Shown here piece after piece: positions 23,224-24,108 of a stretch of 32,000 bases of DNA (position 1 is its first letter; each line of letters opens with the position of its first letter). The translations under genes were made by a program, and so were the position numbers. This DNA is from Haloquadratum walsbyi C23 (GTDB taxonomy: Archaea > Halobacteriota > Halobacteria > Halobacteriales > Haloferacaceae), in the NCBI RefSeq assembly GCF_000237865.1, contig NC_017459.1, positions 1,860,001 to 1,892,000 of the forward strand, written 5' to 3'. The notes under the pieces are model-generated. The model saw only the letters and a list, made by a program, of their open reading frames with translations. It was not told where the DNA came from and searched no databases.

Positions 23224-23740
23224 GTGCCCTGGGGATCATATCGAATTCCAAAACACTCTATCTGCATTCTCTGTGAATTTCTGAGGAACTACCCCTGGTT
23301 TAAGCGCTGGCGCGACCTTCCTGCAGGTTACACATACGAATATTTGGTTAATAATGGCGTGTGTTTCCAACATACTCGCTCTCTGCGGTCGCTCCTTGAG
23401 GACGGGAGATCAGCGCATACAAACAGCTAATTGGGACTGTGTTTACCAGTGGACATGTATTATCTAAACCTGAGGGTGAGGCTTCTTGCTCAAAGAGCGA
23501 ACAAAACGGAACGAGTGGAGCGTGGCTTGTTCGATGCGTCAGACGAGACACGCTACAATGTCAACGTGAACAGTGCAGTGAATATGGCTCGGAGATCAAT
23601 ATGTAAGTCCAATTCAGATTTGTTCGAGTCTGAAGAGGGTGTAGTGCGGGCTGTGGACGCCCCGCAATGAATAACTCTCTCCAATCTTGAATCTGGTCAG
23701 AATCTAAAGGAAACTTCGCTGGAAGCCCCACCCTCAAGGA
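23224..23740 (+). pseudogene. Degenerate, 5'-truncated TnpB (IS1341-type) remnant
   Basis: The fragmented frames contain [14 protein letters not shown] (RuvC-III-like, ADxNxAxNI) and, about 130 nt downstream, GGAAGCCCCACCCTCAAGGA (..GSPTLKD), the typical TnpB 3' end. They are interrupted by stops, and the MITE copy 2 starts immediately after. Confidence 0.45.
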
Positions 23741-23981
23741 CTGTCTCTTACCTACAAATCGAGTCGCTGCTGAGGTCAGTAAACCGGTTGAAATCTCGAT
23801 ATCTACAGATTTAATATCTCTTTGGAACAATTATAGTGGAGTTGATTACCGGCGTTCTGTAACCCCTACAGCCGATATCACTGTCTGAATCGCTTCTCGC
23901 CTCGATTTTTTAGTTCAAAATACCTCTGAGAGCGTCTGAAACGTCCGGTTACGACTCCACGAACTTGTGGGTAAGAGACAG
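23741..23981 (+). mobile_element. MITE copy 2 (241 bp), same family and orientation as 20963-21221
   Basis: The termini are CTGTCTCTTACCTACAA (23741-23757) and TTGTGGGTAAGAGACAG (23965-23981). The right two-thirds is near-identical to copy 1, while the left-central part diverges but keeps hairpin potential. The flanks differ (CCCTCAAGGA on the left, GGCTAAAGCC on the right), so this copy has no clean TSD. Confidence 0.7.
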
Positions 23982-24108
23982 GGCTAAAGCCGTGGGTTTC
24001 CGCCTCGCAATTCTATGAATACACGGCTACGACGTCCGGATCTTCTCAGTCACATTCAACTGAGGATCACTGAGAGTACTGTGATGAGAAAATTCATGAT
24101 GCCAACCC

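Follow-up and report, generated by a model that had tools for sequence, protein, structure and literature searches.

Two copies of a MITE (miniature inverted-repeat transposable element) lie 2.7 kb apart in the haloarchaeon Haloquadratum walsbyi strain C23, both within GC-rich hairpins, and they raise the question of how such a pair came about. The first (copy 1) is bounded by a perfect 10-bp target-site duplication (TSD), whereas the decamers that bound the second (copy 2) do not match. Does the MITE choose a repeated hairpin as its target, or was it duplicated together with its flank, and what produced the unlike flanks of copy 2? We analyzed the 32,000-nucleotide stretch that contains both copies (NC_017459.1, positions 1,860,001 to 1,892,000; hereafter the window, with its first letter as position 1), which has about 47% G+C and encodes acidic proteins. 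The reading we prefer, with a probability of roughly three in four, is that this MITE, HqIRS35, inserted at the apices of IS605-type hairpins, copy 1 being a simple insertion and copy 2 an old recombinant of two insertions.

The two MITE copies and their flanks

Both copies are HqIRS35 ("Duanwu"), a catalogued non-autonomous MITE of H. walsbyi, because length, 17/19 inverted repeat and 10-bp duplication match Table S8 of Dyall-Smith et al. 2011 (PMC3119063), where 34-36 copies per genome and the Tn5-type ISHwa2 as parent are given. Both fall within the expected 241-266 bp and have no coding capacity, the overlapping open reading frames (ORFs) being short and spurious. The terminal inverted repeat (TIR) of about 16/19 is Tn5-like and starts with CTGTCTCTTA; that of copy 1 pairs CTGTCTCTTACCCACAACT with CTGTCTCTTACCCATAAGT at 17/19 and begins CTGTCTCTTACCC. 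In the window, the 12-mer CTGTCTCTTACC occurs without mismatch solely at the four MITE ends. The duplication is 10/10 at copy 1 and 10/10 or 9/10 at other sites, and the 5/10 of copy 2 is accounted for below as two half-sites. Copy 1 is listed at exactly this position in Table S5 of the same paper, which collects the strain-specific regions of C23: adding 1,860,000 to the window coordinate gives the published one for six consecutive features, copy 1 and five neighboring rows (Table 1). The published TIR comparison suggests that HqIRS35 would be mobilized in trans by the Tn5-like (IS4-family) transposase of ISHwa2; no full-length ISHwa2 was found in the window or in the other loci examined.

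Copy 1 has a clean empty site. The sequence-only reading of this stretch had proposed that removing copy 1 and one TSD copy leaves an interrupted palindrome, and strain HBSQ001 (locus L005) and the metagenome contig L021 match that prediction letter for letter: neither has a MITE at this position, and both read ...CGGCTTCCTCCCACACACGGCTAAAGCCGAAGCCGTGGGTTTCCGCCTTACAATTCTATGAA..., with the segments 20915-20952 and 21232-21266 contiguous. Because these empty sites exist, copy 1 is shown to be a simple and recent insertion, its target a solo left end that survives as a relic on the minus strand. For the degraded site, in the version shared by C23 and HBSQ001, the folding energy is -9 kcal/mol (z = -1.8); intact elements have this hairpin in its canonical form, with -11.8 kcal/mol (z = -4.5). 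What the MITE entered here was the GGCTAAAGCC decamer and not the loop of the fold predicted for the site.

To judge from its sequence, the host of copy 1 is the left end (LE) of an IS1341-type, that is TnpB-type, element, because intact elements carry the same sequence upstream of tnpB. The right flank common to both copies reads, on the minus strand, TTCAT followed by AGAATTGCGAGGCGGAAA-CCCACGGCTTTAGCCGTGGG, and a 43-nt LE consensus of leader and hairpin matches 87 haloarchaeal plasmid records at 80-95% identity. All four records inspected (Halopiger, DL31, Halorussus and Halolamina) have an annotated tnpB on the same strand, with this 43-mer 90-115 nt upstream of it; the conserved 5' leader and the subterminal hairpin of an IS1341-type LE are both present. 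Intact elements continue with GTGGG(A/G)(T/G)GAAGCCGACAA...AAACCAC, as does the minus strand left of copy 1 (20915-20952), which is also matched by the LE interior ...CCATGGGAGGAAGCCGACATACTGGGAATCAAACCAC of locus L081. No TnpB similarity was found on the minus strand after either LE in the window, and both are solo or truncated ends. The sequence AGGAAGCCGAC left of copy 1 was considered as a right-end tail of a "terminal-only" palindrome-associated transposable element (PATE) and rejected; it is LE interior in intact elements.

The flanks of copy 2 come from different element ends, a right end (RE) on the plus strand at left and an LE on the minus strand at right. All four flanks had been described as TnpB right-end-like, which holds only for the left flank of copy 2; the other three are LE, with tnpB 90-115 nt downstream in intact elements. 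The homology proposed between the two right flanks is real, spanning 45 and 38 nt including the decamer and hence slightly shorter than the 45 nt beyond the TSD first suggested; 21222-21266 and 23982-24019 align at 37/38 with indels of 6 nt and 1 nt. Copy 2 was also said to follow the end of a degenerate TnpB remnant, and a TnpB C-terminus and RE do lie there, although 23224-23740 as a whole is composite IS605-type debris and not one remnant.

Within this debris, a 79-aa ORF (23431-23670) shares 53% identity over 36 aa with residues 348-382 of a Halopiger TnpB (E = 3e-6), and three TnpBs match 23494-23649 colinearly by tblastn. A Pfam search of the fragmentary ORFs in 23224-23670 gave no match, a plasmid search with the 79-aa ORF by tblastn gave none, and the Halobacterium DL1 TnpB as query gave none in the remnant region; confirmation came with TnpBs of the matching family. 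The RE, an omega-RNA-encoding region, follows the TnpB C-terminus. Its positions 23619-23663 are 88.9% identical to the RE-proximal module of a Haloplanus plasmid element ending ...GTGGGGTAGTTCAC, and 23671-23736 match an intact RE (locus L006) at 83% over 66 nt. A complete end hairpin with a terminal oligonucleotide of the GGGGTAGTTCAC type is absent from this RE, of which only the left arm remains, with the MITE and the LE in place of the right arm and tail. In 20300-24400, Rfam detected no sot or omega-RNA family even at E = 10, with noise only, the sole such match of the window (sot0042) being at 15290-15439. Upstream of the remnant, 23373-23432 matches non-coding DNA about 300 nt before the tnpB start on a Halobacterium DL1 plasmid as well as the 5' end of HqIRS71 (Table S9), and forms an inverted pair with 25413-25452. 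A short inverted match between 20899-20918 and 23662-23680 (E = 0.03) was judged uninformative.

Table 1. Features of the window around the two HqIRS35 copies; Table S5 refers to PMC3119063.
Feature	Positions	Strand	Remarks
HqIRS11	12956-13900		Table S5, "in_gene"
ISHwa9(targeted)	15930-18732		Table S5, C23-specific
Inner part of solo LE, IS1341/TnpB-type element	20915-20952	-	Hairpin arm GTGTGTGGG then AGGAAGCCGACAATACGGCAACAAACCAC; matches LE interior of intact TnpB elements
Left copy of 10-bp target duplication, GGCTAAAGCC	20953-20962		Single in empty sites of HBSQ001 and L021; Table S5 overlap 10
MITE copy 1, HqIRS35, 259 bp	20963-21221	+	Strain-specific in C23, absent from L005 and L021; Table S5 row 434, INSERT_MITE HqIRS35, C23 1880963-1881221, overlap 10
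Right copy of target duplication, GGCTAAAGCC	21222-21231		
Outer part of same solo LE	21232-21266	-	Hairpin arm (GAAGCC)GTGGG and 5' leader; minus strand TTCAT then AGAATTGCAAGGCGGAAAACCCAC
11-bp indel	22112-22122		Table S5
Replacement	22161-23175		Table S5
IS1595-family (ISH4-type) insertion sequence, C23-specific	22170-23173	+	26-nt terminal inverted repeats; Pfam DDE_Tnp_IS1595, E = 4e-20
Left end of separate HqIRS71-type IS605-family fragment	23373-23432	-	TTAG then CTGTTTGTATGCGCTGATCTCCCGTCCTCAAGGAGC...
Decayed C-terminal TnpB remnant (zinc-ribbon/RuvC-III region)	23494-23670	+	Cysteines and aspartates lost
RE (omega-RNA-encoding) non-coding region of TnpB remnant	23619-23730	+	Extends to left hairpin arm GGAAGCCCCA
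Left decamer of copy 2, CCCTCAAGGA	23731-23740		Apex of RE hairpin CCCCACCCT-CA-AGGGTGGGG; fits its own arm, not the right flank
MITE copy 2, HqIRS35, 241 bp, mosaic	23741-23981	+	Present in all strains seen
Right decamer of copy 2, GGCTAAAGCC	23982-23991		Apex of LE hairpin
Outer half of IS1341-type left end, element body missing	23992-24019	-	TTCAT then AGAATTGCGAGGCGGAAACCCAC; LE family as at 21232-21266
HqIRS43	25640-25748		Table S5, within HqIRS71 PATE

Hairpin apices as targets of HqIRS35

A metagenome scan with an internal 18-mer of the MITE, unbiased as to flanks, returned about 30 loci representing about 20 distinct HqIRS35 sites; the survey comprises these metagenome sites and related MITEs in other genera. 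A scan of a genome collection with the MITE right end gave four loci only, none from Haloquadratum, a species seemingly absent from that collection. The sites share one architecture, in which a stem CCCRC is followed by a decamer, the MITE, the decamer again and a stem GYGGG, and this apex position is seen in about 18 of about 20 independent sites. The preferred site can be written CCCRC-GGCTWWAGCC-GYGGG, with a symmetric decamer; a matrix of 40 half-sites gave CCC in 31-34, C3 in 29, T4 in 37, A7 in 38, G8 in 34 and C10 in 28. The half-site motif is always equidistant from the MITE end, and both MITE orientations relative to the host element were seen. Together with the copy-1 target, which is empty in HBSQ001 and L021 inclusive of the 35-nt flank homologous to that of copy 2, these sites bear out the proposal that the MITE targets a repeated hairpin, and the empty target hairpins that the proposal called for exist. 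Since all loci were selected for carrying the MITE, the fraction of hairpins occupied cannot be derived from them.

The same junction of MITE and hairpin was found in Haloglomus, in Natronocalculus and in a metagenome-assembled genome of the Haloferacaceae, and plasmids from over 10 genera carry it as well. A related MITE lineage was sampled without bias; its copies in Halorientalis, Halorubrum and a Natrialbaceae plasmid occupy LE hairpins, each immediately upstream of an intact tnpB, with decamers that match at 9/10, 10/10 and 10/10, respectively, the last after a 1-nt boundary correction; a truncated copy in Natrinema has a hairpin arm in its right flank.

Three further observations concern these elements. 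Tn5-like ends that abut a CCCAC-GGCTTTAGCC half-hairpin are a common sight across many genera of haloarchaea; Natribaculum breve (CP095391.1) has them in at least 40 places. On a Halorientalis marina plasmid (L083 3017-3259), the LE hairpin of an intact tnpB holds a MITE of 243 bp that recurs at 99.6-100% identity on plasmids of Halorientalis, Haloplanus and Halobellus, which points to very recent transfer of a plasmid or segment among the three genera. Finally, contig L056 (1-414) holds two HqIRS35 copies in tandem with exactly one decamer (GTCTTTAGCC) between them, an arrangement that suggests either a second insertion into a duplicated target or unequal exchange.

Mechanistically, we propose that the transposase would strongly prefer the apex of the subterminal hairpins found at both ends of IS200/IS605-family elements (IS1341-type, TnpB-only) and of gene-less PATEs, and that staggered cuts centered on the dyad of the decamer would generate the 10-bp duplication. 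The choice may be mainly sequence-directed toward a symmetric target, by analogy with the GCTNAGC hot spot of IS10; sequence recognition is favored because copy 1 follows the decamer and not the loop of the predicted fold. The abundance of such hairpins and the harmlessness of insertions in them would reinforce the preference. An insertion splits the hairpin and should thereby immobilize the host element, and at a right end it should separate the omega-RNA scaffold from the guide.

Origin of copy 2

The decamers of copy 2, CCCTCAAGGA and GGCTAAAGCC, match at 5/10 positions, and HBSQ001 shows the same mismatch, as do five independent contigs from metagenomes (L013, L021, L053, L061 and L067, the last with the right end only); it is therefore not an assembly error. 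The missing TSD noted from the sequence alone is thus a property of every strain seen, none of which has copy 2 with a normal TSD. The structure is identical in seven sequences, and the decamers are invariant in six of the seven. The two decamers are palindromic apices of separate hairpins, CCCT-CA-AGGA with CCCCA... on the left and GGCT-AA-AGCC with ...GTGGG on the right, where the expected RE right arm ...AGGGTGGGGTAGTTCAC is lacking. The MITE, moreover, has a mosaic composition: columns 1-50 and 51-100 of the alignment are 91% and 78% identical to a Halorientalis-type MITE, compared with 57% and 72% to the Haloquadratum consensus, whereas columns 100-260 are 96-98% identical to the Haloquadratum consensus and 54-78% to the Halorientalis type. 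As judged from this alignment, the first ~95 columns derive from the lineage of other genera and the rest is of the ordinary Haloquadratum type.

Copy 2 is probably an old recombinant of two MITE insertions in two different hairpins. One MITE would have inserted at the RE hairpin apex of the plus-strand TnpB remnant, leaving CCCTCAAGGA as its relic, and another at the LE hairpin apex of a minus-strand element of the same family, with the right-hand GGCTAAAGCC as its relic. Homologous recombination between the two would then yield one mosaic MITE with one flank from each hairpin, in the form of a deletion or, if both hairpins belonged to one element, of an inversion followed by loss. The partner junctions expected from such an exchange are CCCAC-GGCTAAAGCC joined to the MITE and the MITE joined to CCCTCAAGGG-TGGGGTAGTTCAC. 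MITE-mediated recombination, which had been suggested for this copy, accords with the different element ends that flank it, with the fit of each decamer to its own hairpin and with the two lineages in the MITE.

The further suggestion that a rearrangement gave rise to the 2.5 kb separating the copies did not survive comparison among strains. Apart from the insertion sequence (IS) at 22170-23173, the interval is colinear in HBSQ001, L021 and L053, all of which lack copy 1, and the DNA around copy 2 differs by 2-3% between strains. Since the interval is present without copy 1, recombination of copy 1 with copy 2 did not produce it; copy 1 is the later arrival and had no part in forming copy 2. 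The IS, of the IS1595 family, is unrelated to the MITE finding: it is absent from L021, and HBSQ001 has an HqIRS56 PATE there (Table S5 row 438). The C23 IS (22161-23175) and this PATE (L005 5934-6474) inserted at most 9 bp apart, the PATE after TTAT(A) on the minus strand; L021 (~2221-2229), with neither, shows the ancestral site GATAACAGATAATATCAAAACAG.

Several other histories could be imagined for the pair. The close match of the right flanks (37/38 apart from two indels) and the spacing of just 2.7 kb would fit duplication of the MITE and its right flank as one segment, by segmental duplication or flank transduction. We consider this highly improbable, as the copy-1 flank exists free of the MITE in HBSQ001 and L021, a result that refutes such duplication for copy 1; the same 43-nt sequence is a TnpB-element left end in 87 plasmid records, and copies 1 and 2 are only ~90% identical over their alignable part. 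The conservation of the flank across genera first prompted another reading, namely that the hairpin halves belong to the mobile unit, which would have longer inverted repeats (CCCAC-GGCT...) and a "duplication" that is element sequence. At locus L001 the flanks are indeed perfect inverted repeats for 18 nt beyond CTGTCTC, with decamers inverted rather than direct. That reading is scarcely credible against a strain-specific insertion of exactly 259 bp with a 10-bp duplication, decamers and stems that vary by site where the MITE ends are constant, and clean 10-bp direct duplications in non-hairpin DNA.

For copy 2 in particular, it is very unlikely that one ordinary insertion took place and that point mutations then drove its two duplication copies apart, even though the outer stems GGAAGCCCCAC and GTGGGTTTCC still pair and, given one decamer, fold at -13 kcal/mol. 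Five differences in 10 nt contrast with decamers that are invariant in 6/7 sequences and with surrounding DNA that differs by 2-3% between strains; the flanks beyond the decamers are RE and LE, and each decamer is the palindromic apex of its own hairpin. A less remote, though still unlikely, alternative is that the transposase itself joined the flanks through intramolecular transposition (adjacent deletion or inversion) into a nearby second hairpin apex. Both junctions lie exactly at hairpin apices, as target choice predicts, and IS4-family elements such as IS10 are known to make adjacent deletions at low frequency. Against it stand the mosaic composition of the MITE, which it leaves unexplained, and the fact that cut-and-paste transposition in the IS4 family normally frees both ends.

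A number of observations weigh against our preferred account of apex insertion followed, at copy 2, by recombination. As regards copy 2, no parental or reciprocal structure was found; a mosaic could also result if copy 2 were the ancestral form and the common type had arisen by replacement of its left third; and an adjacent deletion made by the transposase would give the same flanks, though not the mosaic. As regards targeting, the data contain no ISHwa2 copy, so the preference described is that of the MITEs, and homology among the hairpins that serve as targets confounds the consensus of the decamer. Both Halovenus copies lie in non-hairpin DNA with duplications of 10/10 and 9/10, and one Haloquadratum site (L059) has no right stem. 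Copies in non-palindromic sequence with clean TSDs had been named as what would overturn hairpin targeting; a minority are of this kind (Halovenus), most are at the apex, and the hot spot stands. Because the Halovenus copies and L059 deviate, the apex preference is not absolute: the hairpin apex is a very strong hot spot and not an obligate site. The Halorubrum decamer GCGTAAACGC lacks CT..AG and is nevertheless at a hairpin apex, which may leave room for a structural component. Moreover, about 9 of 16 complete HqIRS35 sites have decamers that match at 7/10 or fewer positions (L019, L029/L058, L039, L041, L028, L016/L015, L049 and L056), and decamer mismatch showed no correlation with divergence of the MITE from consensus, examined as a test for older copies. 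These mismatched metagenome decamers may reflect gene conversion, recombination or assembly chimeras across a 250-bp repeat, and in view of the chimera risk those ~9 sites were left out as firm evidence. The flanks at such sites are often the same kind of element end from different subfamilies.

Surroundings and known systems

Elsewhere in the window, HqIRS11 (12956-13900) interrupts a lactate-permease gene that is whole in HBSQ001 (L005 246-2024). The Rfam sot0042 match (a sense-overlapping transcript of IS1341-type genes, omega-RNA-like; 104.7 bits, minus strand) has no intact tnpB adjoining and lies just left of the ISHwa9 insertion. A 90-nt stretch 3' of an 85-aa ORF (20557-20646) shares 91% identity with a portion of the HqIRS56(targeted) insert specific to HBSQ001 (L005 9069-9157) and probably represents a further small repeat. 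The cysteine-synthase gene (24109-25239) is bracketed by two left ends of the HqIRS71 type in inverted orientation (23391-23430 and 25413-25452), and the HqIRS71 PATE itself spans ~25413-26093, with its left boundary at 25411-25413. In six of eight metagenome contigs with the same right-hand genes, similarity to the window begins exactly at the left end of this PATE, with unrelated genes leftward; the break is either a real rearrangement at the PATE or the result of assembly joins through the repeat. HBSQ001 (AM180088.1) and many metagenome contigs from salterns encode an identical version of the 129-aa ORF at 26148-26537; a query with the cysteine-synthase ORF in two start variants found no encoding contigs.

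The element, the copy-1 insertion and the general habit of mobile elements to insert into one another are already published. Dyall-Smith et al. (PMC3119063) describe HqIRS35 and ISHwa2 from the same genome, with the same element, length range, TIR and 10-bp duplication, and report 30 of 31 nested MITEs in PATEs or IS605-type transposons as well as HqIRS35 twice at one position in opposite orientations. Their catalog labels the copy-1 site "intergenic", makes a preference for near-terminal palindromes explicit only for the SMR-A repeats, gives no decamer consensus and does not discuss copies with mismatched duplications; ISHwa2 was held to be confined to Haloquadratum, whereas over 10 further genera proved to have these ends in hairpins of the same kind. 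What the present analysis adds is incremental and mildly new: a symmetric consensus for the decamer, the occurrence of the junction across genera and the mosaic, recombinant copy 2. The SMR-A repeats (HqIRS42/43/55) of Haloquadratum likewise insert within near-terminal palindromes of PATEs and IS605-type transposons, but have no target duplication and no known transposase and measure ~110 bp.

Among bacteria, insertion sequences that target repetitive extragenic palindromic (REP) sequences or the bacterial interspersed mosaic elements (BIMEs) they form include IS1397 and ISKpn1 (IS3 family), ISPpu9/ISPpu10, ISPa11 and others (Tobes and Pareja 2006, PMC1525189), and they share with HqIRS35 the fixed-position insertion into an abundant GC-rich extragenic palindrome. 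The two classes of target are related, in that REPs resemble the subterminal hairpins of IS200/IS605 elements (Ton-Hoang et al. 2012, PMC3333891). The resemblance is an analogy of behavior and not membership: HqIRS35 has Tn5-like ends and a 10-bp duplication in place of the ends and duplications of those elements, the transposase would be of the IS4/Tn5 type and not of the IS3 or IS110 type, the host belongs to another domain of life, and the target is the functional end hairpin of another transposon and not a domesticated REP.

A closer parallel for the decamer lies in HqIRS35's own transposase superfamily, in which target choice by symmetric consensus sequences centered in the duplication also occurs. 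The hot spots of IS10/Tn10 and IS50/Tn5 are symmetric, NGCTNAGCN and A-GNTYWRANC-T, respectively. The GCT..AGC of the decamer resembles the IS10 hot-spot core with one additional central base, in keeping with a 10-bp rather than a 9-bp duplication; the preference of HqIRS35 differs in that it appears much stronger and tied to a flanking stem.

A bolder version of our account, which we hold only tentatively and think doubtful, is that ISHwa2-type transposases and their MITEs could be pan-haloarchaeal "hyperparasites" specific for the IS200/IS605 hairpin apex, possibly as an extruded structure, that inactivate TnpB/omega-RNA elements and whose recombination regularly deletes or scrambles them. 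The locus offers a clean case, complete with an empty site, in which the end hairpins of one transposon family serve a second family as landing pads, and apparent mismatched duplications become readable as scars of recombination between such insertions. This helps the annotation of haloarchaeal genomes, in which TnpB elements and their relics are very numerous. If this targeting disables TnpB/omega-RNA elements, it would also bear on the natural control of the ancestors of Cas12.

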